IMG/VR virus record: IMGVR_UViG_3300025138_000281
Location: 1-26,940 of that record
From: a virus
Taxonomy: Duplodnaviria > Caudoviricetes
Length of the DNA stretch: 26,940 nt
Reading direction: 5' to 3' (one strand)
Below are positions 2,757-25,862 of the stretch, in pieces. Under the pieces are notes generated by a model. The model saw nothing but the letters and a program-made list of their open reading frames with translations. It was not told where the DNA came from and did no database searches. The first letter of the stretch is position 1. Every line of letters begins with the position of its first letter. A program made the translations under genes and the position numbers.

Positions 2757-5700
2757 ATGAACGTTCCAAACAGATACAAAGGCTTTTCTCAGTTGCCTGA
2801 AAACGTGCAACAGCGCATGGACCCTTCTTTGGCTAATAAGTACCAGATGGGTGGCTCTGTTATGCAGCGTCCGTTGTTTAGGCAAATGGGCGGTCCGACT
2901 GACATGATGCCACAAGATATGATGCCGCCACCTCCGATGGGTGGCGCTCCAATGCCCCCTCCTCCGATGGCTCCCCCTCCGATGGGCGTAGACCCTGCTA
3001 TGGAAGCGCAATTGATGGACGCCGAGAACACGGGTCAGCAAATTGGCGCACAGTTCTCTGAAGATATGATGATGAATTTGGAAGGCGCAGAAGACTATCA
3101 GTCTTTGATTGACGGGATTCGAGGCAACCAGCTTCCTATAGATGCTCGTTATCAAGAGCTTGCGGGTTACGTTGGCGAGCAAGACGCCATGGCAACACCG
3201 GAATCGGTTTTAGCCTTAACTCAGCCTACTATAATGATGACTGAGCAGGGTGCGATGGACAGCGGCATTGGTGAGTTGATGCAAGGTATTGCTGGTGACG
3301 TACCGATGGAAGGTCCGATGGACGAGGGCGTTGGCGCACTCATGGCGGCGGGGGCGGGAAACACACCACCCGTAAATTTTAGGAATGGCGGACCTGTAGA
3401 GGTCCGCGGTTACTCCAACGGTGCCGCAGTTAGCTCGGGCGGCGGAAGTCGAATTATGGCGCAGGCCGAAAGAGACGCTTCAGGTTACGAGAAATACTTT
3501 GCAGGCGGCTTAGACCAAGAAGCGCGGGCCGCGGCCCTTGCGGAGCAAAACGAGATGGCGAAGGCTCAGATGTTGTTTGACATTGCGGGCACTGCTTTAA
3601 ACTTTGCAGGCAATACGCAAGGCAATACTATTGCGGAGCGCTTGGCTAATGCCGCGGCACAAACTCAGTTAACCGACAAGATCGGAGCGCGGTCCGCGGG
3701 CATTTTGACTGCGAAACAATCGCAGGCGGCCGAAGAACGTCAGCTTCGCATGGCCGCTAGGCAGGCCAGCTTGAATCAGGCTCAAGCTGACGACACGTTT
3801 AGAAAAAACTTAGAATTAGCGTCAGCTAAAAAATCGGCAGGTACTCCAAAATTTGAAACTTTATATAACGTAAATGGGGAAGGAAACCTGACCGGGCAAG
3901 GCACTAGATACGATTTAACAGACCCTCTTTCATTGACTAGGTATAACGCCGCTCTTAGAACAGGAAAATATCGGGACGCAACAACCGCTGCCCCGTTCCT
4001 TGCGGCTTTGGGTGAAGAAATAAAACCTCAAGAGCTTACTCAAGTGCAAGTTACGGCCCCTATAACTGTTGATGGTTACACTTATAAAATAGGTGAGATT
4101 GCCAATCTCACTCCGAGACAAAAACAAGACAATGCTAGAAAATGGAGCGCTGTTCCCGAAAAAGTTGAGTTTGTAACTCTTAATAAAGGTACAGAAACCA
4201 AGCTAGTTATTACAAATGCTCCGGGGTCTGGAAAAACTCTTCAAACGTTATCTGACCTAGGCTGGAGTACAAGCACTTTAGAAGGGGAAACAGCCGCTAA
4301 GAAAGAGATTATCAGCTTTACACAAGGCTTTAACAAAGACGCTCAAGCCCGCTTGTTTGCGAACCAAAAAGAACTTGCAGGAATGTCCGACAAAACAACC
4401 CGAAGAGGTCAGGACCTGCAAGAACAGATTGCAAGGGATGGAAGAGAGCTTCAAAAAACTTTACAAGACAACAGGCAGCTATTTACAACTGGTCGAGATC
4501 AGACGTTGCAGGGTTATAAGACGGCCCTTAAATCTTACAGCGCTACTATTGACAAAGATTTGCTGGCTCTCAAAGGCCAACAAGGCGTTGAAATTGAAAA
4601 ACTTAGAGCCGAACTTAGGGATCAAAGCTCTAAAGTTTCATCTGAACTTAGTTTGGCTAATCAACTTTCTGTTGCGAAGGTTAAGCGCAGCTATGAGATT
4701 GAGCGCCTTACTACAACAAATGAACGGTCAATTGAGATTGAAAAACTTAGGTCCGCGTTAGGCGATGCTTCACGACAAGATCAAAACGTTTTCAAAGCGG
4801 CCGAATCGCTACTTAATAGAGTTGCAGATACAGAAGGTCTTTTAAGTCAACAAGAATGGAAAAACATTCAAAACGAACTTGATCGTAATTTTAAAGGCAC
4901 GGAAGCTGAGAAAAAAGCTGCGGCACTTCTTTTACAGAACATTGCAAAAAACAACATGACCGCAGAGGGCTTAGACCTGCAAGAAGCAAGAGACCTTGTT
5001 TCGAAAGCTAAGGGTGAAGCCAAAACTATTTTGGACAGAGAGCGCTTTGAACTTGAGAAAGCAGAGGAGCCGTTGCTTGCCGCTAAAGGCACGGACGCTA
5101 CGATCAAAGCGCTTTCAGATCAAGACAAGCTAGACAGATACGCTACTAACACAATGCCCGCTACTGAGGCTAATCAGTTTGACATGATTATAGAATATTG
5201 GGCAAAGAAACAAAGCGAGAAGTGGTCTAGTGCTGCAAATGATGGCCAAGGGGGCTATGTTCCTAGTGCTTTAACTCTTGGACCAGCTTTGAAAAAGGCA
5301 ATCGCGGCCCGCGTAGCTATACTTGGACAGGAAAACGTTCCTGATTTAAGTAATGCATCTAATTTTGTTGTGAGAGGAGCGCCGGGAAGCGTTGCGGCAT
5401 ATGCGTTTAACGAAGACGGAACAGTGAATCCGGACTCATTTAACTCAGATAATACACTGATAATTTCGGGTGTTGACTTGTCAAAGTCTCAGGGCATAGC
5501 TTCGGGCTTTAACCGTGTGTTTAAAAACATAGGTTCGTTTATTAAAGAAATCTCACTTGGGTTTTTTGATACGGAAGGTGGCCCTTCTAGTAAAGTTGGT
5601 GTTACTAGAAGGGCTGACGCTGAATTAGACGCTTTAGCAAGAAAAACTATTGAACTTGGAAGATCGGGCGTAGAAGGAAAAGTTTTTGCTTTAGATGTTA

Positions 5701-6041
5701 AACTTTTAGAAGAAGAAGTTAAGAACTTTAAGGCTTCGGCTTTTGGTACAGACCGAGGGGCTTTGGATCAACTGTATGTTACAAGGGCTTCAATGGCGGC
5801 ACAGTTTGGAGCTATTGTAGATGTTCTAAATGGTGGAACTAAAGGAGGTTATACGGAACTCCAAGTAACCACAGCTAGAGCAACGAAGCCAAAACTAGAA
5901 GAATTGTTAGGCGAGTATACCGCAGCAATTCTTATATATGAGCGGTCTTTGGATTCTTCTTCAAGCGCTGAAGCAAGCACCGCCAGCGACCAAGTTCAAA
6001 CGGGGGGTTCTTTGACACGCGATGCTGGAAGAGTTAATTAA
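2757..6041 (+). CDS. Large virion internal protein (Met/Pro-rich N-terminus, long coiled coil)
   Basis: 1094 aa ORF abutting the previous stop. KYQMGG, FRQMGG and FRNGG motifs, a polyPro/Met tract, and an extended helical K/E/Q/L region. Lies within the ejection-gene cluster. Confidence 0.65.
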   Translation: MNVPNRYKGFSQLPENVQQRMDPSLANKYQMGGSVMQRPLFRQMGGPTDMMPQDMMPPPPMGGAPMPPPPMAPPPMGVDPAMEAQLMDAENTGQQIGAQFSEDMMMNLEGAEDYQSLIDGIRGNQLPIDARYQELAGYVGEQDAMATPESVLALTQPTIMMTEQGAMDSGIGELMQGIAGDVPMEGPMDEGVGALMAAGAGNTPPVNFRNGGPVEVRGYSNGAAVSSGGGSRIMAQAERDASGYEKYFAGGLDQEARAAALAEQNEMAKAQMLFDIAGTALNFAGNTQGNTIAERLANAAAQTQLTDKIGARSAGILTAKQSQAAEERQLRMAARQASLNQAQADDTFRKNLELASAKKSAGTPKFETLYNVNGEGNLTGQGTRYDLTDPLSLTRYNAALRTGKYRDATTAAPFLAALGEEIKPQELTQVQVTAPITVDGYTYKIGEIANLTPRQKQDNARKWSAVPEKVEFVTLNKGTETKLVITNAPGSGKTLQTLSDLGWSTSTLEGETAAKKEIISFTQGFNKDAQARLFANQKELAGMSDKTTRRGQDLQEQIARDGRELQKTLQDNRQLFTTGRDQTLQGYKTALKSYSATIDKDLLALKGQQGVEIEKLRAELRDQSSKVSSELSLANQLSVAKVKRSYEIERLTTTNERSIEIEKLRSALGDASRQDQNVFKAAESLLNRVADTEGLLSQQEWKNIQNELDRNFKGTEAEKKAAALLLQNIAKNNMTAEGLDLQEARDLVSKAKGEAKTILDRERFELEKAEEPLLAAKGTDATIKALSDQDKLDRYATNTMPATEANQFDMIIEYWAKKQSEKWSSAANDGQGGYVPSALTLGPALKKAIAARVAILGQENVPDLSNASNFVVRGAPGSVAAYAFNEDGTVNPDSFNSDNTLIISGVDLSKSQGIASGFNRVFKNIGSFIKEISLGFFDTEGGPSSKVGVTRRADAELDALARKTIELGRSGVEGKVFALDVKLLEEEVKNFKASAFGTDRGALDQLYVTRASMAAQFGAIVDVLNGGTKGGYTELQVTTARATKPKLEELLGEYTAAILIYERSLDSSSSAEASTASDQVQTGGSLTRDAGRVN

Positions 6042-6058
6042 ATACCATAGGGGGGTTA

Positions 6059-9000
6059 ATGATGGCCGACAATAACGTTGAATTAGACCCTACCGGGGCA
6101 AACGTAGAAGAATTTATTGGAACTACGGACGTGCCTTCACTCGTGTCTGTTCCAAAGGAGCCTGCGACTTTTAAGCAAGTTTATATTAACAAAGTTATTT
6201 TAACCCCTGAACTAATGAACACGGCTCGCGATCTTTTTCCTCAAGCAAAACAGGAAGCTATAGAGGCGGGAGATATGTCATTTCCCCGGACTTCAGGCGG
6301 GTTTCTTGCAAACGACCTAGTAGATACCATGCGCGTGGATTTTAAGGATCGGCTTGCAGAAGACCCTAATTATATTACATACGAAAGCTTGAGAAACGGG
6401 ACGGCGACAATACTAGACGAAATTGAGATTTACGCTGGAAAAAGCCCAAAAGAACGTATGTTAACAGATGACGACATTGCTAAAATATTTAGCAATGCAG
6501 AGGATGCGCCGTTTGCTCGTGCTTTCTTTGGAGAACTAGCGAAAACAGTTCCCGCTTTACAGGCCGGAATGTCAACTACGGCTTTGACCGCGGGGAAACT
6601 TTATTCAAAACCGCTTTTTCCAGTTGGAACTCCTTTAAGCGGTGCGGAGTGGCTTGGTAAAACGGTTGCGGCTCTTGGGACGGGTGTTGCTGTGGGTTTT
6701 GGCGTATATAGCGCTGCTGATGCAATTGAAGAAGGTTTTTTAGGTCCCGATCCAGTAGTTGTTCCCGGACAGCGGGCCGCGTATGAGGCTTTTAGAACCG
6801 CGGGCGGCGGTGCTGCAAACATCCTTTTTCCGTTTATGTTATCGCGATACACCGTAGACAGTGGAGCAAGGTTTGTTTTAGATAATCTTGCAAGAAACAT
6901 AAAAGGCCCTATTGGTTTACGCATACAGGCCAGTTTAGATGAAATGTTGGCAGGTTCAGCAAGATTAGCCACGGGCTCTCGGACCGGAGCAATAAGCACG
7001 GCGATTGTAGAGAGTGGCGGCGCACTGGGCTCCGCGGGGGCAGCTTATCTAGCAGAGGATGCCAATGTTGGAACGGGTGGAAGGCTGCTTTCTGAGTTTA
7101 TCGGAGGCAACATAGGAGCTTTGACCGTCTTAAAAGCTCTTCCAAAAGCTTTAACGTCCCTTACAGACGCGGGCGGGGTCGAAGGAATTACAAGCTCCAT
7201 TGGAGACGCTCGTCAAAAGAAAGTTTTTTCAAAAATAAGCGAGCTTTACCAAAAATTTGGTGACCAATCTCAGTACGACGAATTGTTAGAAAATTTAACC
7301 AGCCCAGCATTTAAGGCAGAAATGGAGAAGGCTTTTCCGGGCGTTGACTTTAGTGTTGGGCAACGGTCGGGAGACCCGTTGTTCATGGCTTTAGAGGCTT
7401 CGCGGTCGGCAAAGAGTGAAGACCTTAGCGCCGCTCGCAAGAAGTCCGAAAGATTAGCGTTTGAAGCAACAAACAACTTTATAAAAGCTTTGACCGCGGA
7501 AGGTTCAGAAGCTTCATTAAATGCTGCGGCTCAGTTGCGAAAGTCTTTGTTTGACGAAGCGGTTCAAAACAACATTAGTGTTCCACTAGCCCGACTTGCT
7601 AAGTCTATAGCGCAACTAAAAAAACTTCCCGTAGTAGATGGTGATCCAACCGTTATTGCAGGATTAAGTCCGGCCGCTCTTTCCAAAAAATTAACAGACG
7701 TTTTAGAAAACCAACTCTTTACCGTGATGGGCGCTAAAGAACGCGCGTTGTACACAGCCGCGGGAGCAAGGGACCACGTTGTTTATGATCTTTCTGAAGG
7801 TGTCCCAGAATTTATTAAGGTGTTCGACGAAATATCTTATTTAAACCCGTCTGTTCAAGCCGAGTTTGAAAAATCAATGCCCGAGATTGCGCTTTTTATT
7901 AAACAAGCAAAAAGAGATTTAGGTTTAGACGTTGAAGGCGGGGAGAGTTTTAACCTTACAGCTTTGCAATCGGAAGTAGACCAAACTACAGAAATTCTTT
8001 CTAAATATGTTCCAGTGGATCGTAGAAAAGAAAGGGGCGTGGATTATCAAGTTTTTGATTTTGAAGATTTTAATATCAGTCTTTCATTTATGAAAAATAG
8101 TTTTAAAGAAAAAAACCTGTCTTTCGACGAGCAAGCAGACATTTTTGAAAAAGTTGCTAAAGATAAACTTTCTTTATCCGAAAAGATTAACGACGGTGCT
8201 AGTGCGACACCCAGCATGGCGAAAGAATCTCGTGAGGCATACGCAAACGTCTTGCTGGCGGAAGCAGGACTTGCAAGGGCCAAAGCTACGCGTGGGATGG
8301 TCGGTGACGAAGCCGAAGCTGTTGTTATAACCGCTGGAAAAATAGATGAAATCCGAAGCCGCGCGTTAGCACTGGGCAGAGAGTTTACAAGCGGGCTTTA
8401 CCCTGCAAAATCTGACTATGGAAGACGGCTTGGGCAGCTTGCAAACTCTTTGAGAGAAGGCTTGGATGCTGTTGAAGGAGGTGCGCCGGAAGCTTACAAA
8501 AACGCACTTGCTTTTACTAGGGCTAAACACGACGTGGTTAGCCGAATGGTTAACGCAAAGGCTAAGTCTAGTTTGAGAAGTGGCGCAAGGGCCATAGACC
8601 CTGAAATTCAGTTTAGTACTTATATTAACGCAAATCCTAGCGTAACGTTAGGCCGGACTCGACAACTTCAAGCCTTGGCGCAATTTGCGGACGATCAAGA
8701 CTTGGCTTCATATGCCCTTGAGGCTGGAGTTGAACCGGGTGTAGACCCCGTTTTTACAACTATAAACAACCTTACAGACGCTTATTTGAGGAAAACTCAA
8801 ATAGACAAGGTTATTACAAAAAAATTCGACTCTACTTTAAACAGGGAAGTAATAGAGGTAAACGATCAAAAGTTAGCTGAGTGGAGAGACGCTAATTCAG
8901 ATTTGTTGGAAGCTTTTCCACAGATAGATATTGATACAGCAGATGCTGTAACTTTTCAAAGGTCTTTAGAGTTTAAACAAGCTCGTAAAGCCAAGCTAGA

Positions 9001-10237
9001 TAAGAAAGGGTTGGTCCAACAACAACTGGGTTCTCTTTTAAACGGCAGGTCTCCAACCGAAGCAATCGGAGAAGCTTTTGAGGCCGCACAACCTGCGGAC
9101 GCTATGCGAAAGCTGTTTAACATTAGAAGAGTAGCCGCAGACTTCACTATAACCGGGGGTAGAACCCGGTCTCGTGTTAAACTGGGAACTCCTAAACCCA
9201 ACTCAAGAACGGCGCTAATTCAAGAGGCCGGATTAAAAGTTAAAGACGTGAACGAAGGGTTTCGGACCGCTATCTTGCAACAAGCAATGATGCGGGCTGG
9301 AGGAGAAGTTGGAGGTAAAAACAAAACCTTTGACCCAAAAACGTTTCACGAGTTTTTGTTTAAGCCTATGGGCAAGTCTAATCAGGTTTCCGTTGCAGAC
9401 CTTGCCTTAAAAAACGATATATTTACAGAGGGCCAGTTTAAACGGTTAAAATTTATGTCTACTCAGATGGTTAGAATTCAAGCTGCGGACGCGGCAGGAA
9501 GACTAAAAGACCCTGATTTTGCCGATGAGGCGGGTGCTATAGTAGATTTTTACTATTCTGTTGTGGGATCGGCGTTAGGTTCCGCAGCTTACAGTGCAAC
9601 TTCAAGTGTCCTTCCTATTTCGGGTAGCGCCGGACAATTGGCGGCGTCTTCTGCGGGCGCTAAATATATAAGAACAATTATGCAATCAATTCCGGCTGTG
9701 CAGAACTTGGAAACTTTGGATCAAGCGTTTATGGACGCAGAACTTGTCAGCAAGCTTTTGCGTAGACCTACAAATGCTGCTGATGCCGAACGTCAAAGGT
9801 TTTCCGTTGGAAACCATCTAAAAGAAATGTTCTTTACAAAAGGCGCAACGATAGGCCGAGAGATGATTCCGTTTGTGGCTAGGGAAACTTTTGAGGAAGA
9901 CGACAACACGGTTGAAGCGCCGTATCTAGGATTTCCGGGCTTTCCAGAAAACGCAGAAAAAAATCGTCAACAGTACATTGACCGTATTCGGCGCAACCTT
10001 CCTCCCAACGATCAGCAGGGGGCTTTTGTTCCACCGTCTAATTTTCCCGCGAGACCTTCGCCTGTGGTATCTCCCACCACGCAGGCGTCGGCCGTACCTA
10101 GTCCTGCCCCGGCTCCAATTAATTCTGGTCCGGTAGACAGAACTAGGTACGCAGCCCTATTCCCAAATGATTCGATTTCCGGTATGATGAAAACACAAAT
10201 GTTGTCCCGCGGCGGCATTGCAAGTTTGATGAGGTAA
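6059..10237 (+). CDS. Large internal virion/ejection protein
   Basis: 1392 aa. Several Gly/Ala-rich hydrophobic segments (e.g. VAALGTGVAVGFGVYSAA, GGALGSAGAAYLA), mostly helical, Pro-rich linker, then YAALFPND...MLSRGGIASL C-terminus. G-rich RBS upstream. No catalytic motif recognised. Confidence 0.65.
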   Translation: MMADNNVELDPTGANVEEFIGTTDVPSLVSVPKEPATFKQVYINKVILTPELMNTARDLFPQAKQEAIEAGDMSFPRTSGGFLANDLVDTMRVDFKDRLAEDPNYITYESLRNGTATILDEIEIYAGKSPKERMLTDDDIAKIFSNAEDAPFARAFFGELAKTVPALQAGMSTTALTAGKLYSKPLFPVGTPLSGAEWLGKTVAALGTGVAVGFGVYSAADAIEEGFLGPDPVVVPGQRAAYEAFRTAGGGAANILFPFMLSRYTVDSGARFVLDNLARNIKGPIGLRIQASLDEMLAGSARLATGSRTGAISTAIVESGGALGSAGAAYLAEDANVGTGGRLLSEFIGGNIGALTVLKALPKALTSLTDAGGVEGITSSIGDARQKKVFSKISELYQKFGDQSQYDELLENLTSPAFKAEMEKAFPGVDFSVGQRSGDPLFMALEASRSAKSEDLSAARKKSERLAFEATNNFIKALTAEGSEASLNAAAQLRKSLFDEAVQNNISVPLARLAKSIAQLKKLPVVDGDPTVIAGLSPAALSKKLTDVLENQLFTVMGAKERALYTAAGARDHVVYDLSEGVPEFIKVFDEISYLNPSVQAEFEKSMPEIALFIKQAKRDLGLDVEGGESFNLTALQSEVDQTTEILSKYVPVDRRKERGVDYQVFDFEDFNISLSFMKNSFKEKNLSFDEQADIFEKVAKDKLSLSEKINDGASATPSMAKESREAYANVLLAEAGLARAKATRGMVGDEAEAVVITAGKIDEIRSRALALGREFTSGLYPAKSDYGRRLGQLANSLREGLDAVEGGAPEAYKNALAFTRAKHDVVSRMVNAKAKSSLRSGARAIDPEIQFSTYINANPSVTLGRTRQLQALAQFADDQDLASYALEAGVEPGVDPVFTTINNLTDAYLRKTQIDKVITKKFDSTLNREVIEVNDQKLAEWRDANSDLLEAFPQIDIDTADAVTFQRSLEFKQARKAKLDKKGLVQQQLGSLLNGRSPTEAIGEAFEAAQPADAMRKLFNIRRVAADFTITGGRTRSRVKLGTPKPNSRTALIQEAGLKVKDVNEGFRTAILQQAMMRAGGEVGGKNKTFDPKTFHEFLFKPMGKSNQVSVADLALKNDIFTEGQFKRLKFMSTQMVRIQAADAAGRLKDPDFADEAGAIVDFYYSVVGSALGSAAYSATSSVLPISGSAGQLAASSAGAKYIRTIMQSIPAVQNLETLDQAFMDAELVSKLLRRPTNAADAERQRFSVGNHLKEMFFTKGATIGREMIPFVARETFEEDDNTVEAPYLGFPGFPENAEKNRQQYIDRIRRNLPPNDQQGAFVPPSNFPARPSPVVSPTTQASAVPSPAPAPINSGPVDRTRYAALFPNDSISGMMKTQMLSRGGIASLMR

Positions 10238-10243
10238 GTAGCT

Positions 10244-12025
10244 ATGATGAACAACATGTCACAAGGGCTCGGTTCGTTTAACAACATGATGCCTCAGAAC
10301 AACATGCAGCAAAACCCTTATGGCCAACAGATGAACCCGCAGATGATGGGTCAACAGGTTCGCTCACCAGAGATGTTCAGCGAACAGCTAATGAACCCGA
10401 TGATGCCTCAGATGCAAGACCCGTTGCAGGGCTTACAGCCGATGGCCGAGCCAGAGGGCTTTGGCGTTTACGGTCAGTCTTTATCTGGCTTCGCGGACGG
10501 CGGTGCGGCATCCAGTGGCGGCGTTCCTCGTGAGACGGTGATTGGTGGCCAGCCTCACATGTTGGCTTATATTAATCCTGAAGAGGAGCAGATGCTTTAT
10601 GCCGCTGGCGGTTCGGGCGAGCCGGGTCCGGGCGGCATTCCTGCTTTTATTCCTGACGATGGAAATCGCGGCTCCTCCTACGCGCCCAGAACTTCCCCGC
10701 GCCCAAGAGCGCGGCCCGCGGACCTTTCTTCTTCAATGCGTCGGGCCAGTAGTCAGTCCGCGGCTGAACTAGCTTATATGGCTCGGGCTAGGAGGGCTGC
10801 TCAACAATCCACGGCTGGTCAACAGGCCGAGGCTAATATAGCTACTCAACAGGCGGCTGTTAAAAAACAAGCGGCTCAACAAGCCGAGGCTGATCGTAGA
10901 CAAGTTTTGTCAGACCAACGTCTCGCGGATCAACAAAGGGCTCAACAAGGAACGGGTATTGCAGGTTTGGGCGGTCAGGGTGGTATGAGTACACCCGTAA
11001 ACGTCTCCTATAACAATCCGGGCACAGGCCTGTCCGCCGACCGCCGCGCTTTAATAACTCAGGCTTTACAAAACACTCCTGTTAACCAGCGTGATGGGGT
11101 AATGAAGGCGCTGTTAGAATTACAAGGGCCTCCAGTAGATAACGAGACCATCCCTAAGACCGTTTCTTTTCCCGGGGGGAATGTTGTTGGCGGAACCGTA
11201 CCTACTGCCGCAACTGTTGGCGGTTCCGCCGCGGAAAAACTTGCCGGGTACAGAAAAAACACGCCCAACACCTTTAGAGAATTCTTAGCAAATGCGTTAA
11301 CTCCGGGTGACCAAATGAAGTATGTAAACGGTCTATTGGTGTATGGGGATAACCATCCAAACGCTGGTCAGCCCGTTCCAGAAGACGCCACAAATTCATT
11401 TGGACTAAAGGTAGGGATGGGCAACAGCGTAGGAAACGACAATCCGGGTGCAGGAAATTTCGCTAACTCTGGAGAAGCGCAGGCCGCGAACCAAGGTGGC
11501 CTACCCGGAATTCCCGGCGCTATTGCGGGTACTTTGGGAAAGGGTATGGCCTTTCTTGGGGGCATACGACCTACAGATGTTGAGGTAGGCCGTGGCGCAG
11601 ATGGCCTACAGATTTTTCAGACAGAAGGCGCTTTTGGCGGGGCCGGAAATTTTTATGTAATTGACCCAATGACGGGTTTAGTTCGCAATGTTAAAGGTGC
11701 TAACGATTCAACCTCTCCACTTGTAGACATGAGCCAGATGATGGACGACGCCAGTAGCAACAATTCTGCGGAAGAACTGGCCTACGTTGCTAATCTTCAA
11801 GCCGAACAGGATGCTATTAATAACCCTGTGGTAGATGATCCTTACTCTCCAACTCCTTTAACAAGAGCGGGAACTGGAATGGGCTCTAATGTTGGCACTA
11901 TTTACGACACGGGAAATACGATAGTTGAATCCGGTACAAATCCTTTTGCCCAAGGAAACCAAGTTGGTGCGCTTACTTTTGAAGAGCTAATGCGGCTTAA
12001 CCAGCAACAAAATCGTATTCTTTAA
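10244..12025 (+). CDS. Virion-associated low-complexity protein
   Basis: 593 aa. M/Q/N/P-rich N-terminus, FADGG followed by HMLAYINPEE..L...GGSG...PGGIPAF. GAGG RBS upstream and TAATG coupling to the next gene. Confidence 0.6.
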   Translation: MMNNMSQGLGSFNNMMPQNNMQQNPYGQQMNPQMMGQQVRSPEMFSEQLMNPMMPQMQDPLQGLQPMAEPEGFGVYGQSLSGFADGGAASSGGVPRETVIGGQPHMLAYINPEEEQMLYAAGGSGEPGPGGIPAFIPDDGNRGSSYAPRTSPRPRARPADLSSSMRRASSQSAAELAYMARARRAAQQSTAGQQAEANIATQQAAVKKQAAQQAEADRRQVLSDQRLADQQRAQQGTGIAGLGGQGGMSTPVNVSYNNPGTGLSADRRALITQALQNTPVNQRDGVMKALLELQGPPVDNETIPKTVSFPGGNVVGGTVPTAATVGGSAAEKLAGYRKNTPNTFREFLANALTPGDQMKYVNGLLVYGDNHPNAGQPVPEDATNSFGLKVGMGNSVGNDNPGAGNFANSGEAQAANQGGLPGIPGAIAGTLGKGMAFLGGIRPTDVEVGRGADGLQIFQTEGAFGGAGNFYVIDPMTGLVRNVKGANDSTSPLVDMSQMMDDASSNNSAEELAYVANLQAEQDAINNPVVDDPYSPTPLTRAGTGMGSNVGTIYDTGNTIVESGTNPFAQGNQVGALTFEELMRLNQQQNRIL

Positions 12026-16525: not shown

Positions 16526-16544
16526 AGTTTTATCCTTTTGAAGC

Positions 16545-16573
16545 TTGACTATACGATCTTATGAGAATATAAG
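16545..16573 (+). promoter_or_regulatory. Sigma70-like promoter for the replication operon
   Basis: TTGACT (16545-16550), 17 bp spacer, TATAAG (16568-16573). Confidence 0.7.
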
Positions 16574-16585
16574 CGTGTTTGTCAA
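16556..16585 (-). promoter_or_regulatory. Sigma70-like promoter for the SNF2 helicase gene, overlapping the rightward promoter
   Basis: Minus-strand TTGACA (16585-16580), 18 bp spacer, TAAGAT (16561-16556). Confidence 0.65.
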
Positions 16586-16623
16586 GGCCGTAAAAGGGTC
16601 TTTAACAGCGAAAGTGAAAAAAC

Positions 16624-17193
16624 ATGACAGATATACTATCAATGATGGAAGCCGACTTTGAAGAGAACGTCGCATCTTCCATGGAAAAGGGCAACCTTGG
16701 CGGCATAGCCATACTAGCCCGCAAAATACGAACAGCCCAGCAAGAAGTCGAAGAGATTGAGAAAGACCTCAAGTCTCGCAAGAAAGACTTGCTGAAGCTG
16801 ACAGATGAAGAACTACCTTCTGCTATGCAGGAACTAGGTATTTCCTCGTTTGCTCTGGATGACGGTTCAACAGTAGACGTAAAGCCTACATATGGAGCCA
16901 GCATTTTAGTTGCCAACAGGCTTCATGCCTACGCTTGGTTGCGTGACAATGGCTACGACGACATTATTAAAAACATCGTTTCATGCGAGTTTGGTCGTGG
17001 CGAAGACGATCAAGCCAGCGCTTTTAAAGCGTTTGCTTCTAAAGAAGGGTTTCCGGCGGATCAGAACGAAAGCATCCATTCGGGCACACTAAAAGCTTTT
17101 GTACGGGAACGTGTGGAAGCTGGGGACGACTTTCCAATGGAACTTTTCGGGGCCTATATCGGTCAACGCGCTATAATCAAAGGAGCAAAATAA
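16624..17193 (+). CDS. Conserved phage replication-module protein (N-terminal coiled coil), function unknown
   Basis: 189 aa. LPSAMQELG, WLRDNGYDDIIKN and IHSGTLKAFVRE motifs resemble a phage family usually found beside SSB/helicase genes. TAATG coupling downstream. Confidence 0.7.
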   Translation: MTDILSMMEADFEENVASSMEKGNLGGIAILARKIRTAQQEVEEIEKDLKSRKKDLLKLTDEELPSAMQELGISSFALDDGSTVDVKPTYGASILVANRLHAYAWLRDNGYDDIIKNIVSCEFGRGEDDQASAFKAFASKEGFPADQNESIHSGTLKAFVRERVEAGDDFPMELFGAYIGQRAIIKGAK

Positions 17194-17974
17194 TGGCGAA
17201 TGCAGTAACAAAAAATAAAGCAGCGGATGTAGCCGTGTTTGACACATCCATGTTCGAAGCAGATGCGGGCGCGGGAAACCAAAACGTAGGGTCAGAAGAC
17301 CTCGCGCTGCCGTTTCTCAAGCTGTTGAGCGGGTTAGATTCCTTGCTGGACACACACGAAACCGCGCGTAAAGGTGACATATACAATACCGTCACAGGCA
17401 CTGTAGTGAGCGGTAAGGATGGGTTAAGCGTAATTCCTTGTGCCTATCAGCGCGTGTTCATTCAGTGGGTTCCAAGGGGCGCTGGTACAGGCGCACCGAT
17501 GAACGTCTACAAGCCGAATGACCCCGCTATGCCAAAGACTGAGCGTAGCAAAGAAGATAATAAAACTACGTTGTCGGCGGTGACGGTGACTACATCGAAG
17601 AAACTCACCAGCACTACGTTATGATCGTCAACGAAGACGGTTCAACTGAAACGGCTCTGATTGCAATGAAGTCCACGCAGCTAAAGAAAAGCCGCAAATG
17701 GAACAGCATGATACAGTCGGTAACGATGCAGGGTAAGAACGGTCCGTTCACACCACCCCGCTTCTCTCACGTTTACCGCATCAAAGCGGAATCCGAGGAG
17801 AACTCTAAAGGTAGCTGGCACGGTTGGGAAATGTCCCGAGAAAACCCTGTGCAAGACGCATCCGTATATGCCCGAGCAAAAGCTTTCTCAGAAAGTGTGC
17901 TTACTGGCGACGTGGTTGTAAAACACCAAAACGAAGATGACAAAGGCGAAGGCGCTGACGACATTCCGTTTTAA
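17193..17974 (+). CDS. Single-stranded DNA-binding-like protein, split by a -1 frameshift at ~17562-17565
   Basis: ORFs 17193-17624 and 17621-17974 join into one protein (...RSKEDNK/NYVVGGDGDYIEETHQHYVMIV...) ending in the acidic SSB-type tail DDIPF. GGAG RBS before 17193. Confidence 0.7.
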
Positions 17975-17983
17975 TGTTTACTA

Positions 17984-18005
17984 GGGGGCTGCTTCGGTAG
18001 TCCCC
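17984..18005 (+). other. Stable RNA hairpin with cUUCGg tetraloop, between the SSB and primase genes
   Basis: GGGGGCTGC-TTCG-GTAGTCCCC forms a 9-bp stem with two G-U pairs. No U-tract follows. Confidence 0.75.
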
Positions 18006-18022
18006 ACCGCAAGGACAAAACC

Positions 18023-19561
18023 ATGACAGTTAAAAAGTTCTCGTCTATCTTTGATGGACTGAAAGAAGCTTACGGCACATACCGGATAGAGAAAACTCAG
18101 TCCAACGGGAAGAACACAGGCAAAGCAGGCATCGTTCGCGAACCGCGCAACGCGGGTCTGTGGGAGGGCCACCTGTCGGGTAAGGGAAACTCTATCGGCA
18201 TTATCCCAATAAACGCAGATAACATGTGCAAGTGGGGCTGTGTAGATATTGACCAGTACCCGCTGGATCATAAACTACTCTTAGAAAAGATCAGGAAGCT
18301 AAAACTTCCGCTCGTTGTCTGTCGCTCTAAGTCTGGCGGAGCGCACTGCTTCCTATTCTGTAAGGATTGGGTTGAGGCAAAAGACATGCAAAGGTCACTC
18401 AAAAGTATAGCGGCCGCGCTGGGCTACGGTGAAAGCGAGATATTCCCAAAGCAGATTAAACTGCACCTAGATCGTGGAGATGTGGGTAACTTTCTAAATC
18501 TTCCGTACTACAACGCAGAAGACGGTCTGCGCTACGGCATCCTAGATGACGGCACTTCGGCCACTCTAAAAGAATTCTTTGAACTCTACGAGACACACGT
18601 TCAAACGCCAGAGCAAATCCAGAAGCTCCAGATAACAGAAGCAACCGAAACAACGCCCGTAAGAGACGGCCCGCCGTGCCTACAGCACTTAGTCAAAGAG
18701 AAAATCTCTGAGGGTGGGCGCAATAACGGTCTGTTTAATATAGGCGTGTACCTTCGCAAGGCGTTCCCAGATAGCTGGGAAACAGAAATCCTGACCTACA
18801 ACATGCAATACTTTGAGCCGCCGCTCCCACTGTCAGAAGTTACAGTGGTTGCAAAGCAGCTAGAGCGCAAAGATTATGCCTACCGCTGTAGTGATGCGCC
18901 GATAAACGCGCACTGTAACAAGGAACTTTGCCAAACCCGTAAGTTTGGTATTGGGAGCGCCATACAGAACGCTACAGTAGCCAATCTGCGTAAGTACAAT
19001 TCAACGCCCCCCGTCTGGTTTATGGACGTTAACGGCGAGCCTCTGGAGCTAGATACAGACGCCCTAATGAGCCAGCCGATGTTTCAGAAAGCATGTATGG
19101 AGCAACTCAACTTCATGCCGCGCAGCGTGGCAAAGCAACAGTGGGAAGGTCGGATCAGCGCACTGCTTACAGAGATGCGCGAAAACGAAAGCGCCATCAT
19201 GGAAGTGGCAGTAGACGCCAGCGTTAGCGGCCAGTTTTACGACTACTTAGAAGAATTTTGTCGTTTCCTACAGCAAGCGCAGGACAAAGAAGAAATCTTG
19301 CTCCGCCGCCCTTGGACCGACGAAGACGCAATGGTAACCTTCTTTCGCCTAAAAGACTTCGAAAACTTTCTAAAGAAGAACAAATTCTTTGAGTACAAGT
19401 CACACCGAATTGCCCAGCGCCTGCGTGACATAAACGGCGATAGCACCGTTCTGAAGATCAAAGGCCGCGCAGTGCGGGTCTGGCAGATTCCAGCGTTTGA
19501 GTCTGGCGACATAGATATAACAACTCCAGACTTCACACCAAAACAGGAGAGCCCGTTTTGA
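18023..19561 (+). CDS. Archaeo-eukaryotic-type (AEP) DNA primase with PriCT-like domain
   Basis: VDID (motif I), SKSGGAH (motif II), GNFLNLPY (motif III), and a PPCL...EGGRNNGLF PriCT-like segment. AAGGA RBS. Confidence 0.8.
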   Translation: MTVKKFSSIFDGLKEAYGTYRIEKTQSNGKNTGKAGIVREPRNAGLWEGHLSGKGNSIGIIPINADNMCKWGCVDIDQYPLDHKLLLEKIRKLKLPLVVCRSKSGGAHCFLFCKDWVEAKDMQRSLKSIAAALGYGESEIFPKQIKLHLDRGDVGNFLNLPYYNAEDGLRYGILDDGTSATLKEFFELYETHVQTPEQIQKLQITEATETTPVRDGPPCLQHLVKEKISEGGRNNGLFNIGVYLRKAFPDSWETEILTYNMQYFEPPLPLSEVTVVAKQLERKDYAYRCSDAPINAHCNKELCQTRKFGIGSAIQNATVANLRKYNSTPPVWFMDVNGEPLELDTDALMSQPMFQKACMEQLNFMPRSVAKQQWEGRISALLTEMRENESAIMEVAVDASVSGQFYDYLEEFCRFLQQAQDKEEILLRRPWTDEDAMVTFFRLKDFENFLKKNKFFEYKSHRIAQRLRDINGDSTVLKIKGRAVRVWQIPAFESGDIDITTPDFTPKQESPF

Positions 19562-19755
19562 CAACCCCAGTATTAAAAAAACTTAGAAACGTAGAGATCG
19601 TCCGGATGATCGACGAACAGCACATGACAAAAACCGCCGTCGCTAAATGGTTTAAAATAAGCAAACAGCGCGTGTGGCAGATTTACGAACGGGAGAAAGA
19701 AAATGTTCAGGATATTCGGCCCACCGGGGACGGGGAAGACAACCAGACTTCTTAA
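19558..19755 (+). CDS. Small helix-turn-helix DNA-binding protein
   Basis: RNVEI...MTKTAVAKWFKISKQRVWQI, a sigma region-4-like HTH. AGGAGA RBS and a TTG start overlapping the primase stop. Confidence 0.75.
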   Translation: MTTPVLKKLRNVEIVRMIDEQHMTKTAVAKWFKISKQRVWQIYEREKENVQDIRPTGDGEDNQTS

Positions 19756-21223
19756 TATGGTTGACGACGCGCTCCAAAAGGGTGTCGCCCCGATGAACAT
19801 AGCTTTCCTAGCTTTTACACGCAAAGCCGCCAACGAAGCAAAAGAACGCGCGGCTAAACGCTTTAACCTAGACCCCAAGAAAGACCTGTTCTATTTCCGG
19901 ACACTGCACAGCCTAGCTTTGACCTGTTCCGACATACGCACCGAACAGGTAATGCAGGACGAAAACTATAGGGAACTCTCCAGAGAGATGGGGGTGCAGC
20001 TAAACGTAGCTCGTACCAATAACTTTGATGACGATCTGCCTGAGATGACCAAAGCAACTGACCCTATCTTGGGCCTGATTAACCTTGCCCGAATGCGCAA
20101 AGTGCCGCTGCGCCAACAGTACAACGAAACCCCAATCGAAATAGAGTGGAACATTGTAACCTATGTGGACAAATGCCTGACCAGCTACAAAGAAAACATG
20201 GAGATGTACGACTTCACAGATATGCTGGAGAACTTTCCAAAAGAAGGCTACACAAGCTGCCCGCACTTTGACCTATGCTTTGTAGATGAAGCGCAAGACC
20301 TTTCACCCATACAATGGGACATAGCGCACATCCTAGACGAACGATCAAAAAGAATGTACTGCGCAGGCGATGATGACCAAGCCATATACCGCTGGGCAGG
20401 GGCAGATGTAGACCACTTTATCGGGCTGGACGGCGGATCAGAAACCCTGTCACAATCCTACCGCGTTCCATTCCTAGTACACCAACTGGCAGAACGGGTC
20501 GTGTCCCGTATCGGTAAGCGCTTCCTTAAAGAATACAAACCAAAGGTCGATGAATACGGTTCGATACGCCGTATCTTCAGCGTCGAAGAGATAGACATGT
20601 CAGAAGGATCGTGGCTCATCCTCGCCCAAGCCGGATACCAGCTACAGCCCGTAGCCGCCGAACTCCGGTCCTCCGGATACCTGTTCATCAATCGCGGCCA
20701 TCGCTCCATATCCGAAAAGATATCCGACGCCGTTAACGGTTGGGAACAACTGCGCAAAGGCAAAGAAATCACAGGAGCCGTAGCGCGTAAAATATACAGC
20801 TACATGTCAACTAAAGACCGCGTGAAAAGAGGCTTTAAAACCCTGACCGCCGTCGAAGATACAGACTTCGTAACCCTCGAAACACTGACCGCGGACCACG
20901 GACTTTTAGCAACACAAGACATGGTATGGCATATTGCCATGGACCGCGTACCAGAAAGCGACAGAGCCTATATCATTGCAATGCTTCGACGAGGCGAGCG
21001 CTTTAACGGCGAGCCACGCATAACCGTGTCAACGATACACGGGGCAAAGGGCGGAGAGGCGGACAACGTAGTTCTATTCACAGACCTTTCCCCCGCCGCC
21101 GAAGAACAAATGAATGTTAACCCAGACGACACGCACCGCGTATTCTATGTGGGCGTAACTCGCGCTAAACAAAGCCTGTTTATCGTGGAACCTCAAGACT
21201 TCACAAGGAGTTATGATCTATGA
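19703..21223 (+). CDS. UvrD/Rep-like superfamily 1 DNA helicase
   Basis: GPPGTGKT, AFTRKAA, VDEAQD, GDDDQAIY, QSYR, STIHGAKGGE, YVGVTRA. Confidence 0.93.
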   Translation: MFRIFGPPGTGKTTRLLNMVDDALQKGVAPMNIAFLAFTRKAANEAKERAAKRFNLDPKKDLFYFRTLHSLALTCSDIRTEQVMQDENYRELSREMGVQLNVARTNNFDDDLPEMTKATDPILGLINLARMRKVPLRQQYNETPIEIEWNIVTYVDKCLTSYKENMEMYDFTDMLENFPKEGYTSCPHFDLCFVDEAQDLSPIQWDIAHILDERSKRMYCAGDDDQAIYRWAGADVDHFIGLDGGSETLSQSYRVPFLVHQLAERVVSRIGKRFLKEYKPKVDEYGSIRRIFSVEEIDMSEGSWLILAQAGYQLQPVAAELRSSGYLFINRGHRSISEKISDAVNGWEQLRKGKEITGAVARKIYSYMSTKDRVKRGFKTLTAVEDTDFVTLETLTADHGLLATQDMVWHIAMDRVPESDRAYIIAMLRRGERFNGEPRITVSTIHGAKGGEADNVVLFTDLSPAAEEQMNVNPDDTHRVFYVGVTRAKQSLFIVEPQDFTRSYDL

Positions 21224-21552
21224 AACAACAAGAACGTTTTGAATTTATAGAGGCCGAGATTGACCGAGCCTATGTTCACGCTGATGACGAATGGAAACAA
21301 GAGTATTACCAGAACGCCGCTAAATATCTAGCTGAACACAAGATTGTTGAAGGCGGAAAGATTTGTGCCTTTTGCAGATCACAAGGGATGGCTGATCCGC
21401 ACCACCATAACGTTTGGGGTGCAATGATGACATCTCTAAAAAAACTAGGGTGGGTCGAGAAGATAGGAATGGTCCGCCCAACTACACGCCACACGCATAT
21501 TAACGAAGTATGCCAATGGGAAAGCAAACTATTTAAGGGAGAGAAGACGTGA
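21220..21552 (+). CDS. Hypothetical phage protein
   Basis: 110 aa, AAGGAG RBS, ATGA overlap. PHHHNVWGAMM motif. Confidence 0.7.
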   Translation: MKQQERFEFIEAEIDRAYVHADDEWKQEYYQNAAKYLAEHKIVEGGKICAFCRSQGMADPHHHNVWGAMMTSLKKLGWVEKIGMVRPTTRHTHINEVCQWESKLFKGEKT

Positions 21553-21704
21553 ATTGTTGGCATTGTAAGACAGAACTTATTTGGGGAGGAGATCACGATT
21601 GTGAGGATGACGAAGAGCATTCTATGGTCACAAACCTCTCATGCCCTAAATGCGAGAGCTTTGTATTAGTTTATTATCCAAGGGAGAAAGAAGATGAAAC
21701 GTGA
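21549..21704 (+). CDS. Small Zn-ribbon protein (not in ORF track)
   Basis: GTG start overlapping the upstream TGA, GGGAGAG RBS. 51 aa MNCWHCKTELIWGGDHD...SCPKCESF with two CxxC pairs. Confidence 0.8.
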   Translation: MNCWHCKTELIWGGDHDCEDDEEHSMVTNLSCPKCESFVLVYYPREKEDET

Positions 21705-22023
21705 TGAAATACTGGATTTGTCAAAAGAACTGATAAACGGCCAACGCGCCAAAGACTACGGCGATGCGTTCGACAACCACAACAGAATAGCGGAGGGTTG
21801 GAACATAATTACAAACAGCGCACTGGTAAGCCACGGCGCACTGACCGCGCAGCACGTTGTATTAATGATGGATTGGGTGAAGACAGCACGGCTACTTAAC
21901 ACTCTGGATCACGATGACTCTTGGATAGATAAAGTTGGTTACAGCGCTCTTGGTGGCGAGTTCTCACAAAAGAACGAAATGATCCAAGAGATAGAAGCAG
22001 TAAAGAGAAAGTTACAAAAATGA
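21694..22023 (+). CDS. DUF6378-like phage protein
   Basis: R.KDYGD...N..RIA..W, MM..VK.AR and DSWID..GY.ALG pattern. GGGAG RBS. Confidence 0.75.
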   Translation: MKRDEILDLSKELINGQRAKDYGDAFDNHNRIAEGWNIITNSALVSHGALTAQHVVLMMDWVKTARLLNTLDHDDSWIDKVGYSALGGEFSQKNEMIQEIEAVKRKLQK

Positions 22024-23912
22024 AGCTTAAAATAGCCAGCCCTTCGCTAAAGTCAGAGTGGGTTCCGCCCGCAGAACTTCCAGACCTAACAGGCGCAAGC
22101 ACAATCGCTATCGACGTAGAAACCCGTGACCCTAACATCAAAACAAGCGGTCCCGGCTGGGCTGTAGGTGACGGTGAAGTGGTCGGCTATGCAGTGGCTA
22201 CAGCAGATTGGGCAGGCTATATTCCTACAAGACACCGTGGTGGCGGAAACCTAGACGAAAAGATAGTCAATCGCTGGCTCAAGAAGGTCTTTGACTGCCC
22301 CGCCGATAAAGTAATGCACAATGCGCAATATGACGTAGGTTGGATCAAACGTATGGGGTTTGAGATAAACGGGCGGGTAATCGACACAATGGTCGTCGCT
22401 TCGCTGCTAGATGAGAATAAGTTTTCCTACGCCCTTAACTCTTTGGCGTTTGAGTATCTGGGCCTCGCAAAGAACGAAAGCCTACTTAGAGAAGCAGCCA
22501 AAGAGTTTGGCTTTGATCCCAAGGCTGACATGTGGAAAATGCCCGCCATGTACGTCGGACCCTACGCCCAGACAGATGCAGAAGTTACCCTGCAACTCTG
22601 GGACTACCTAAAAGTAGAGATCGGCAAGCAAAACCTCTGGAATATCGTCAACCTAGAGCTAGATTTGCTCCCCTGCTTGGTCAACATGACTTGGAGAGGC
22701 GTCCGCGTTGATATGGACAAAACTGAAAGAACGCGGGACGCGATCCTAAAACGCGAGAAAACTGTGCTAAAAGAGATCAAAAGCTTAGTTGGCCGTGACA
22801 TAGAGATTTGGGCGGCGAATTCTATAGCAGAAGCCTTCGATGACCTAGCAATACCTTACCCAAAGACAGAAAAAGGTGCGCCGTCGTTTAAAAAGCAGTT
22901 TTTAGCAGATCACAGCGAGAAATTACCACAACTGATCGTCCAAGCTCGCAGTTTAAACAAAACCAGCGGAACTTTTATCAATAATATCCTAAAATTCTGC
23001 CACGGCGACGGTCGAGTGCATTCGCACATCAATCAGATCAGAGGAGACGACGGGGGCACAGTTTCTGGTAGATTTTCTATGAATAACCCTAACTTACAAC
23101 AAATCCCGGCCCGCGATCCGGAGATCGGGCCACTTATACGGTCGTTGTTCCTGCCAGAAGAGGGGGAACAGTGGGCGGCAATAGATTACTCGCAACAAGA
23201 ACCGCGCATCTTGGTTCATTACGCCCATGTATATGGAAAGAGCCGCGGGATTGCTTTGCGAGGTGTTGAGGAGTTTGTAACAAGCTACAGAGAAAACCCA
23301 GACATGGATTTTCACACAATGGTTGCGGAAATGGCAGATATCCCTCGGAAACAAGCAAAAACCATCAATCTGGGCATGATGTACGGCATGGGGGTCGCTA
23401 AACTGGCAGATCAGCTAGATATCGACACAAGCGAAGCTAAAGGCTTGGTTAAACAGTACCATGACCGCGTACCGTTCGTAAAAGCACTGATGAATGGCGT
23501 TACAGAAAGACTGAACAGCAAGGCCAGCGGCGGCGCGATAAGCTCAATCTTAGGTCGTAAGTGTCGGTTTAATCTTTGGGAGCCAGACTCTTTTGAGATG
23601 ACCAAAGCTATGCCGTACCAAGAAGCAGTGCTTGAATATGGTGACACATGCCGTCTCAAGCGGGCGTTTACTTACAAAGCGTTGAACAGACTTATCCAAG
23701 CGTCCGCCGCGGACATGACCAAGAAAGCCATGGTTGATTTGTACAAAGAAGGGTATCTTCCAATGCTTCAAGTGCATGACGAACTGTGCATGTCAGTAAA
23801 AACCAGAGAAGAGGCAGAAGCTATTGCCAAGATCATGGTAAATGCAGTACCATTAGAAATCCCTAGCAAGTGTGACGTTGAAGTAGGTCCAAGCTGGGGT
23901 GAAGCTAAATAA
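22020..23912 (+). CDS. polA: Family A DNA polymerase with 3'-5' exonuclease domain
   Basis: Exo I IDVET, Exo II HNAQYD, Exo III YAQTD. Motif A DYSQQEPR, motif B KTINLGMMYG, motif C QVHDEL. Confidence 0.95.
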   Translation: MKLKIASPSLKSEWVPPAELPDLTGASTIAIDVETRDPNIKTSGPGWAVGDGEVVGYAVATADWAGYIPTRHRGGGNLDEKIVNRWLKKVFDCPADKVMHNAQYDVGWIKRMGFEINGRVIDTMVVASLLDENKFSYALNSLAFEYLGLAKNESLLREAAKEFGFDPKADMWKMPAMYVGPYAQTDAEVTLQLWDYLKVEIGKQNLWNIVNLELDLLPCLVNMTWRGVRVDMDKTERTRDAILKREKTVLKEIKSLVGRDIEIWAANSIAEAFDDLAIPYPKTEKGAPSFKKQFLADHSEKLPQLIVQARSLNKTSGTFINNILKFCHGDGRVHSHINQIRGDDGGTVSGRFSMNNPNLQQIPARDPEIGPLIRSLFLPEEGEQWAAIDYSQQEPRILVHYAHVYGKSRGIALRGVEEFVTSYRENPDMDFHTMVAEMADIPRKQAKTINLGMMYGMGVAKLADQLDIDTSEAKGLVKQYHDRVPFVKALMNGVTERLNSKASGGAISSILGRKCRFNLWEPDSFEMTKAMPYQEAVLEYGDTCRLKRAFTYKALNRLIQASAADMTKKAMVDLYKEGYLPMLQVHDELCMSVKTREEAEAIAKIMVNAVPLEIPSKCDVEVGPSWGEAK

Positions 23913-25281: not shown

Positions 25282-25382
25282 TGAACCTCACTGACTTCGC
25301 CGCGCTGATCGGTTTCGGATGTGGAATTATCGTGGGCGGAGCAATCTGCTTTTTTACTTTAACTTTTTTATGGATATGCTGA
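25281..25382 (+). CDS. Small single-pass membrane peptide (not in ORF track)
   Basis: AAGGAGG RBS at 25267. MNLTDFAALIGFGCGIIVGGAICFFTLTFLWIC, 33 aa. An alternative GTG start lies at 25278. Confidence 0.65.
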   Translation: MNLTDFAALIGFGCGIIVGGAICFFTLTFLWIC

Positions 25383-25384
25383 AA

Positions 25385-25453
25385 ATGAGTAGTCAAGATA
25401 TGGATCGTCTGTTGGACGAAGTGTTTGCAAAAGTGTTCGGGAGTAACTGGTAA
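25385..25453 (+). CDS. Very small peptide (22 aa)
   Basis: MSSQDMDRLLDEVFAKVFGSNW. Fills the gap and is coupled by TAATG to the next ORF. Confidence 0.5.
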   Translation: MSSQDMDRLLDEVFAKVFGSNW

Positions 25454-25626
25454 TGGAAGAACTACAGCTAGACCATGAGCCTTCAATTAATCATTGGGCA
25501 AAACTAATAGCTGATGATGATATAGCTACGGGTTATCACACAAGTTGGAGCCACGCATATGAATGTGCTTGGGTAGGCTTGGAAACAGAATACAACTACA
25601 GCTACGAATATAGAGAGGGTTGGTAA
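25453..25626 (+). CDS. Small acidic/aromatic hypothetical protein (57 aa, not in ORF track)
   Basis: GGGAG RBS, TAATG overlaps at both ends. MEELQLDHEPSINHWAKLIADDD... Confidence 0.65.
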   Translation: MEELQLDHEPSINHWAKLIADDDIATGYHTSWSHAYECAWVGLETEYNYSYEYREGW

Positions 25627-25862
25627 TGGCTAAGTGGAAAGAAATCCCGCTGCGTAAACAAAAGTTCGATAACTTCGCCGCACTCGCCGCACTCCAAGAA
25701 ACTCGGCAAAAAGAATGTAGCCAATGTAGCGGTGAAGGTAAGGTCGAAACCGACGTACCGCGGTCCGCGAACTTCGGACGGGACATAGGCGAGTTGTATG
25801 TCGAATGGCTGGCCTGCGAAGAGTGCAACGGGTCAGGAAAAATTAACTTGGAAGATGAGTGA
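25626..25862 (+). CDS. Small protein with DnaJ-type CxxCxGxG zinc-finger motifs
   Basis: CSQCSGEG and CEECNGSG. GAGAGGG RBS, ATG at 25626. Confidence 0.75.
   Translation: MAKWKEIPLRKQKFDNFAALAALQETRQKECSQCSGEGKVETDVPRSANFGRDIGELYVEWLACEECNGSGKINLEDE

Follow-up and report, generated by a model that had tools for sequence, protein, structure and literature searches.

Chi and KOPS are polar signals of chromosomes, HIP1 of cyanobacteria is truly palindromic and encloses a methyltransferase site, phage T7 carries heptamer arrays beside its terminal repeats, and the omega protein uses heptad operators. In this study we analyzed a repeat with features of all these systems in the IMG/VR virus record IMGVR_UViG_3300025138_000281 (Caudoviricetes), whose complete stretch of 26,940 bp is further referred to as the window. 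The repeat had originally been noticed as an interrupted palindrome, CGCGGNCCGCG, dispersed through coding regions. It is more widespread than first noted: behind it is a direct repeat with a strand bias, CG[C/T]G-N3-CG[C/T]G, with a period of 7 bp, of which the palindrome is the self-complementary form. The repeat may well mark sites on single-stranded template that are preferred for priming by a primase of the AEP family encoded by the phage, a reading to which we give slightly less than an even chance. Among the closest described systems are the AEP primase-polymerases (Prim-Pols), namely ORF904 of pRN1, the NrS-1 polymerase and CAPP. According to the available part of PMC8718748, pRN1 recognizes 5'-GTG and makes a primer of about 8 nt started outside this word, the best NrS-1 sites are GTGG and GTGA, and CCTG is recognized by two other Prim-Pols, Tth and Bc. 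In the accessible portions of PMC10345425 and PMC10250227, the CAPP site is given as 3'-RCC-5', and another AEP is described to make a defined 9-nt primer, respectively.

Since the closest named phages are DSL-LC04, 023Pt_psg01 (psg01), HTVC023P and HTVC027P (polymerase identity 49–57%), the window is assigned by sequence similarity to the HTVC023P-type marine phages, described in the available part of PMC9599517 as being among the most abundant in the sea. Identity to these phages is 48–55% for the SNF2-type helicase and 55–62% for the large terminase (TerL). The gene order and the core genes (helicases, polymerase, terminase; core list from the same partial source) are common to the window lineage and the HTVC023P-type group, whereas the window clade is distinguished by a GC content of 47% and the CGCG form of the repeat. 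Near-identical contigs prolong the window by 12 kb leftward (G011, tail genes) and by 11 kb rightward (G001, containing the small terminase gene terS, putative early genes and terL). For HTVC023P and psg01, the first 50,000 of 60,878 and 59,769 bases, respectively, were analyzed.

All eight perfect copies of CGCGGNCCGCG reported in the original prediction are present at the correct positions (Table 1), compared with a mean of 0.03 and a maximum of 1 in dinucleotide shuffles. Chance expectation was indeed far below one: four null models yielded 0.03–0.19 copies. Under the codon-preserving models the expected numbers were 0.13 (synonymous shuffling within each gene), 0.19 (the same with codon-pair context) and 0.04 (shuffling of codon order), and none of 1000 shuffles under each model reached eight. 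Thus chance and codon usage are ruled out as the cause. Sites with at most one mismatch number 21, with a shuffle mean of 0.67; the nine one-mismatch sites listed earlier are all present, while four more had been overlooked (2723, 6799, 10492 and 18137). The word CCGCGG, estimated to occur about 25 times, is found exactly 25 times, and its excess is weaker than that of the palindrome (8.3 expected, 14.5 with codon-pair context). The peptide permits CGCGGNCCGCG at 13 positions, eight of which are filled; two control palindromes fill none of two and none of four. Among spaced palindromes with 5-bp arms CGCGGNCCGCG ranks first (log10 p of −15.2, with −3.4 for the runner-up). CGCG, GGNCC and CG occur in the window at expectation, hence no general CG bias stands behind the palindrome.

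As suggested initially, the perfect copies use all three reading frames (5/2/1). They also occur in genes on both strands, although the minus-strand share amounts to a single copy of the eight (16139). The copies at 12196 and 13570 form one RGPR peptide repeat and are non-independent, as had been anticipated. Six of the eight lie in six large genes of putative internal virion proteins. An assembly artefact is ruled out, because the sites are found both in diverged relatives and in identical copies from other assemblies. General hairpin stability was rejected as well: of 64 palindromes of the same build the window contains this one alone, and the perfectly pairing CACG-N3-CGTG exceeds the background in late genes alone (10 vs 2.4, orthology unchecked). 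Moreover, a CYTG version of the repeat, described below, is incapable of pairing. In a scan of the collection for two palindromes at most 30 bp apart, 95 stretches were found, mostly GC-rich and unrelated; 13 of them match proteins of the family, two weakly.

The 20 pairs CG[C/T]G-N3-CG[C/T]G in the window comprise 11 symmetric, seven minus-strand and two plus-strand ones; when both copies read CGCG, the palindrome arises. At control spacings of 5, 8, 10, 11, 13, 16 and 17 bp the window contains 0–3 pairs, and at 14 bp, five. In 18 family records (near-duplicates among them), CCGYG words lie preferentially 7, 14, 21 and 28 bp apart (119, 37, 45 and 29 occurrences, respectively), whereas other distances of at least 5 bp occur 2–20 times. 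The excess at a lag of 7 bp is confined to CGCG (152 vs 22) and CGTG (80 vs 12); for other words identity at this lag is hardly raised. The consensus unit is C-C-G-Y-G-R-N, and arrays contain 2–16 units. Identity at the variable positions of neighboring units is 0.27–0.40, with 0.27–0.37 expected (210 contexts); these positions are not copied between adjacent units, which excludes simple slippage duplication.

Enrichment in relatives had been proposed as a check, and the repeat turned out to be family-wide. The ratio of 7-bp spacings to control lags is 2.1–72 in 23 family records and 0.4–2.9 in 11 outgroup phages sharing the replication genes alone or TerL alone; these ranges are not fully separate at the low end (G007 2.1, DSL-LC04 2.4, CRP-902 2.9). 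In the relatives the element takes the form of a direct repeat that is non-palindromic and biased to one strand, and purely inverted arrangements mostly show no enrichment, so the symmetric dimer-binding site put forward for the palindrome does not hold as the basic unit. Neither does CCGCGG: it is absent in six relatives (G003, G004, G007, G008, G014 and G015) that retain the repeat, and DSL-LC04 has one copy with 18 expected and also retains the 7-bp spacing. CCGCGG is absent or nearly so in the six relatives, DSL-LC04 and CRP-901/902, and in excess in the window clade. A restriction-type site thus has opposite fates within one family; its absence in the six relatives looks like restriction-site avoidance.

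The word itself differs between lineages, the layout being shared. In HTVC023P it is CGTG and in the HTVC027P lineage C[C/T]TG. HTVC027P has no CGYG pairs (0.4 expected), whereas 7-spaced AAGC and CAAG occur 19 and 22 times (0.9 and 2.7 expected). CGYG pairs are missing from the 72 records of the HTVC027P clade. CYTG forms 25 groups on the minus strand, with 14 and 11 at control lags, and 17 on the plus strand, with 3 and 1; the plus-strand groups are mostly arrays. The complete relative G021 contains 56 CYTG pairs against 8–9 (some counted twice because its ends overlap), which face the minus strand sparsely round the genome and the plus strand in arrays to the right of terS. In the HTVC023P clade there are 22 CGYG groups against 5, and none at lag 8. 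Both HTVC023P and HTVC027P infect the same host, HTCC1062; as their words differ, the cause is likely encoded by the phages, and the reader of the repeat is, on this comparison, likely a phage protein.

In addition, several other records carry spaced words. In the distant lineage L537–L541, 7-spaced CGAG occurs 5 times with 0.1 expected, possibly a further dialect. G009/L087 belongs to an unrelated phage whose contig was chosen by the motif and whose genes include ParB-like ones and a gpA-type terminase; at 4990–5730, between its putative early genes and terS/terL, the 7-spaced motif of the window is densely clustered. In HTVC027P (L342, 17395–17430 and 17715–17740) heptad arrays adjoin −35 boxes of the TTGAC type, which stand ahead of putative early genes.

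For the analysis of direction, the genomes of 18 records were oriented along terL and non-palindromic pairs were collapsed by orthology. From the stabilization gene to terS there are 91 minus-strand and 16 plus-strand orthologous groups; from terS to terL, 8 and 24; from terL to the capsid gene, 5 and 11. Spacings of 8, 10 and 11 bp show no strand bias in these records. Codon shuffles do not account for the bias (28 vs 3.0 and 37 vs 5.1 on the biased strand, 6 vs 3.7 and 6 vs 3.0 on the opposite one). It persists in minus-strand genes (10 vs 0.9; for SNF2, four groups vs one), so the motif direction is independent of gene strand. Of the plus-facing groups between terS and terL, 18/26 lie within 600 bp of terL, thus forming an array upstream of terL that faces the opposite way. 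In G012 the contig end (1–120) is a tandem array with an 8-bp unit where relatives carry the 7-bp array.

In several genomes a short run of units stands ahead of an AT-rich element upstream of terS, which may be a replication origin. In L002 this non-coding element (6340–6620, 1.3–1.7 kb to the right of the window) contains inverted GTAAC/GTTAC repeats and is preceded by a perfect palindrome. It includes the NrS-1 site TTTGGTTA, which is present in 4/16 records and was therefore rejected as a family feature. Over the array, in a stretch covered by assembled contigs alone, public runs show no clear twofold depth.

Retention of the motif was estimated at motif-matching third positions of five replication genes, with the same codons elsewhere as a control. 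In relatives with 88–99% identity, the window codon is kept at 0.855 of motif sites and 0.667 of control ones (25 codons, p = 1e-4), and in those with 70–88% identity, at 0.546 and 0.406 (24 codons, p = 0.004). At 55–70% identity there is no excess at motif third positions, nor is there any for half sites (4–6 codons). As the sites were picked from the window, a strong mutational bias would yield the same result. The copy at 16139, the only perfect one that could be assessed in depth, shows turnover between close relatives. Non-redundant genes of relatives with at least 88% identity contain 25 perfect copies with 0.43 expected, orthologous sites being counted more than once. A constraint that acts on the DNA and is read by a protein, in line with the original proposal, is supported by the codon nulls, the excess synonymous retention in close relatives and the family-wide presence of the repeat.

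The candidate reader is the AEP primase. The AEP-TOTE domain was found in 46/49 aligned members of the primase family, and PriCT-1 in 31/49 (E ≤ 0.05). The nearest solved relatives are 7NQD, 7NQF, 7P9J and 7QAZ (E = 1.5e-10), of which 7P9J is the Marinitoga CAPP Prim-Pol domain (available part of PMC10345425). The structural model (pLDDT 81, pTM 0.51) consists of a catalytic domain followed by a helix bundle (residues 218–305) and further domains; the bundle is assigned from profiles and secondary structure. Four invariant cysteines (219, 289, 298 and 303) suggest a metal or iron-sulfur site in it. Like the Prim-Pols, the window encodes an AEP with a putative helix bundle, and the words GTG[G/A], CCTG and 3'-RCC-5' reported for them, the last coinciding with the CCG of the unit, fall within the repeat unit (PMC8718748 and PMC10345425, both as far as available). 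In an unbiased ranking, the most strand-asymmetric words of the HTVC023P clade are CGTG among 4-mers and CGTGG among 5-mers, along with GTGG, and in the HTVC027P clade CCCTG, CCTGA and CTTGG are among the top five. Furthermore, psg01, which uses CGYG, is nearer to HTVC027P in TerL (71 vs 60%), polymerase (59 vs 52%) and the helix-turn-helix region of TerS (47 vs 33%), but its primase helix bundle is nearer to that of the window (47 vs 27% for HTVC027P). Judging by these identities, one clear motif switch follows the helix bundle rather than TerS, TerL or the polymerase.

If the repeat is read by the primase, the minus strand with its motifs would become the lagging-strand template of a fork running left from the terS/array region. 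Okazaki fragments would then be primed at the dispersed pairs, and the leading strand at the array, which faces the other way. The primase would begin a G-G primer opposite the CC adjoining the recognized word, and the 7-bp spacing could reflect the primer length or a two-site grip. With CGCG in both copies, as in the window clade, a palindrome would result by accident of sequence. A broader scheme, in which a polar, 7-bp periodic priming code is written into codons in dialects (CGCG, CGTG, CYTG) that co-evolve with the helix bundle, possibly spread by primer-driven conversion and are private to each lineage, is conceivable but doubtful.

A number of observations weigh against priming. With 19.8 bits, PriCT-1 in the window primase falls slightly short of the Pfam cut-off of 21.1 bits. 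In the window and G003 clades the motif words are not the most strand-asymmetric ones. The covariation amounts to one clear switch, with five pairs in psg01 against 0.4 expected. The repeat is missing from Pan1, R5C and the outgroup phage ct3Et533, the last with a helix bundle of 47% identity. From the capsid to the stabilization gene, that is, in the tail genes, the repeat stays at the background level (four minus vs two plus groups), which would be strange if each fork depended on these sites; the 12 kb to the left of the window contain one pair, and no switch of GC skew was seen. Prim-Pol sites are 3–4 bases long, so that resemblance of words comes cheaply. No primase homolog was detected in G009 with its similar cluster. 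Finally, tandem primase sites were nowhere required in the literature searched, and the strict 7-bp spacing is left unexplained.

The repeat might instead be a packaging signal, the terS/terL array being bound by the small terminase and the dispersed copies aiding genome selection or translocation. The concentration of the array next to terL (18/26 groups) and the reversal of direction near terS agree with this. So do the heptamer arrays next to the terminal repeats of T7, the CRP-901/902 phages, whose TerS is not detectably homologous and whose repeat is weak or missing (ratios 1.2 and 2.9), and the position of the G009 cluster between putative early genes and terminase genes. However, the recognition-helix region of TerS varies widely among lineages sharing the motif, TerS of psg01 is nearer to that of HTVC027P with its different motif, and the HTVC027P arrays are 3–4 kb away from terL. 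Packaging, already named in the original prediction, fits the sequence comparison worse than priming does, and we consider it rather improbable.

A similarly low probability is assigned to a signal of the Chi or KOPS type or to phased binding of another replication-module protein (UvrD-like helicase, nuclease or the gp34-like putative single-strand binding protein). Direction alone cannot separate Chi/KOPS signals from priming sites. The gp34-like protein partly groups the CGYG lineages (43 and 40% identity to the window, 29% for HTVC027P), and arrays of 2–16 units suggest an oligomer. On the other hand, UvrD does not group these lineages (28–41% within, 31–34% to HTVC027P), and the gp34-like protein of psg01 is equally near to HTVC027P (34%) and HTVC023P (32%).

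Mutational drive without site function is unlikely as well. A sequence-specific and strand-biased process, e.g. retained DNA primers, would convert near-matches under weak protein constraint, which agrees with the location of 6/8 perfect copies in the fastest-evolving genes, where copies are densest, with the unfixed site at 16139 and with the loss of excess retention outside relatives of at least 70% identity. A strong bias would raise retention in close relatives too. Against this reading stand the uncopied variable positions of neighboring units (0.27–0.40 vs 0.27–0.37 expected), the hardly raised lag-7 identity of other words and the CGTG form kept in lineages without CCGCGG.

An operator for a phage regulator binding tandem heptads, as the ribbon-helix-helix omega protein does, is quite unlikely: arrays directly upstream of terL and, as read from the sequence, two TTGAC-type promoter-like boxes adjoining HTVC027P arrays would suit it, but most copies lie deep inside coding regions in a direction independent of gene strand, and no heptad-binding regulator was identified among the phage proteins. 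The HIP1-like methylation or mismatch-repair signature of the original prediction is very improbable, since the dispersal at synonymous positions and the palindromic form in the window clade are outweighed by the direction, the non-palindromic forms, the different motifs on one host and the rarity of methyltransferase genes (cytosine-C5 in 1/5 and N4/N6 in 0/5 near-complete phage relatives).

Compared with the Prim-Pol sites, which are published as single words of 3–8 bases, the repeat forms pairs and arrays at an exact 7-bp spacing, is written into codons and exists in lineage versions. With HIP1 it shares over-representation, use of synonymous positions and presence in all frames, but it is a directional direct repeat in phages mostly without a methyltransferase gene. 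Like Chi and KOPS, it is dispersed and oriented to a fixed point independently of gene strand; unlike them, it is internally repeated, apparently read by a phage-encoded protein, and sparse in about half of the genome. As in T7 and the omega operators, a 7-bp unit is arrayed near packaging or promoter regions, but in these phages it occurs scattered in genes as well, in the orientation opposite to that of the array. No description of the repeat was found in the accessible literature on the HTVC023P-type group, phage iterated palindromes, pac heptads and strand-biased primase sites. The available parts of PMC9599517, bioRxiv 2019.12.14.876532, PMC10149686 and PMC10611076 contain no mention of it that we found.

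From a repeat that is directional and specific to a lineage, the start of replication and its direction can be predicted. HTVC023P and HTVC027P, with one host and differing motifs and helix bundles, offer a direct test of Prim-Pol specificity. Whatever its reader, the repeat is a sequence signature for binning of fragments, and a DNA-level signal shapes the synonymous, and probably the amino-acid, choice in phage genes. Should a priming code exist, the private replication signal of each lineage would be legible from sequence alone.

Table 1. Genes and copies of the 7-bp repeat in the window.
Feature	Coordinates	Strand	Remarks
Perfect palindromic pair	3523..3533		ARAA; 1094-aa putative internal virion gene
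Perfect palindromic pair	3688..3698		ARSA
Perfect palindromic pair	5303..5313		IAARV
Perfect palindromic pair	10710..10720		ARPA
Perfect palindromic pair	12196..12206		RGPR, peptide repeat copy 1
Perfect palindromic pair	13570..13580		RGPR, peptide repeat copy 2; retained in several relatives (32–71% protein identity)
Perfect palindromic pair	16139..16149		minus-strand SNF2 helicase gene; variable among relatives (85–97% protein identity)
Perfect palindromic pair	25759..25769		PRSA, 80-aa gene; retained in relatives (79–89% identity) with the middle base altered
Seven non-palindromic 7-spaced pairs	6220..21856	-	6220, 14771, 16460, 20890, 21130, 21485, 21846
Two non-palindromic pairs	2015..19129	+	2015, 19119; counter to the general direction
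Three further CGCG-N3-CGCG pairs	18137..22742		18137, 18144, 22732
Six large genes of fast evolution for putative internal (ejected) virion proteins	1..15102	+	position; synteny with DSL-LC04
SNF2-type helicase	15083..16525	-	
Pam3 gp34-like gene, putative single-strand binding protein	17193..17974	+	acidic tail
AEP primase, 512 aa, candidate reader	18023..19561	+	AEP-TOTE, PriCT-1-like helix bundle, C-terminal domains
UvrD-like helicase	19703..21223	+	
Family A DNA polymerase	22020..23912	+	49–57% identity to DSL-LC04, 023Pt_psg01, HTVC023P, HTVC027P

A Pam3 gp33-like gene is also encoded in the window. The gp34-like gene is broken at 17540–17570 by a 1-bp deletion in an A run, probably an assembly error of this record, since G011 and L001 carry the missing base. 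The record L204 has a 90-aa putative early gene (7771–8043, minus strand) whose end resembles a Fis-type helix-turn-helix by eye; the protein has no Pfam or PHROG match and no homolog in the other records. In L028/G002 a polymerase 96% like that of the window is fused to the replication module of a distant lineage, probably in a chimeric contig. As a primase swap it was rejected: the primase comes from a lineage with a 50% identical polymerase, in which 7-spaced words are weak. In the Pan1 and R5C records TATA recurs at an 11-bp spacing (16 and 6 times, with 0 expected), a periodicity that is probably promoter-related.

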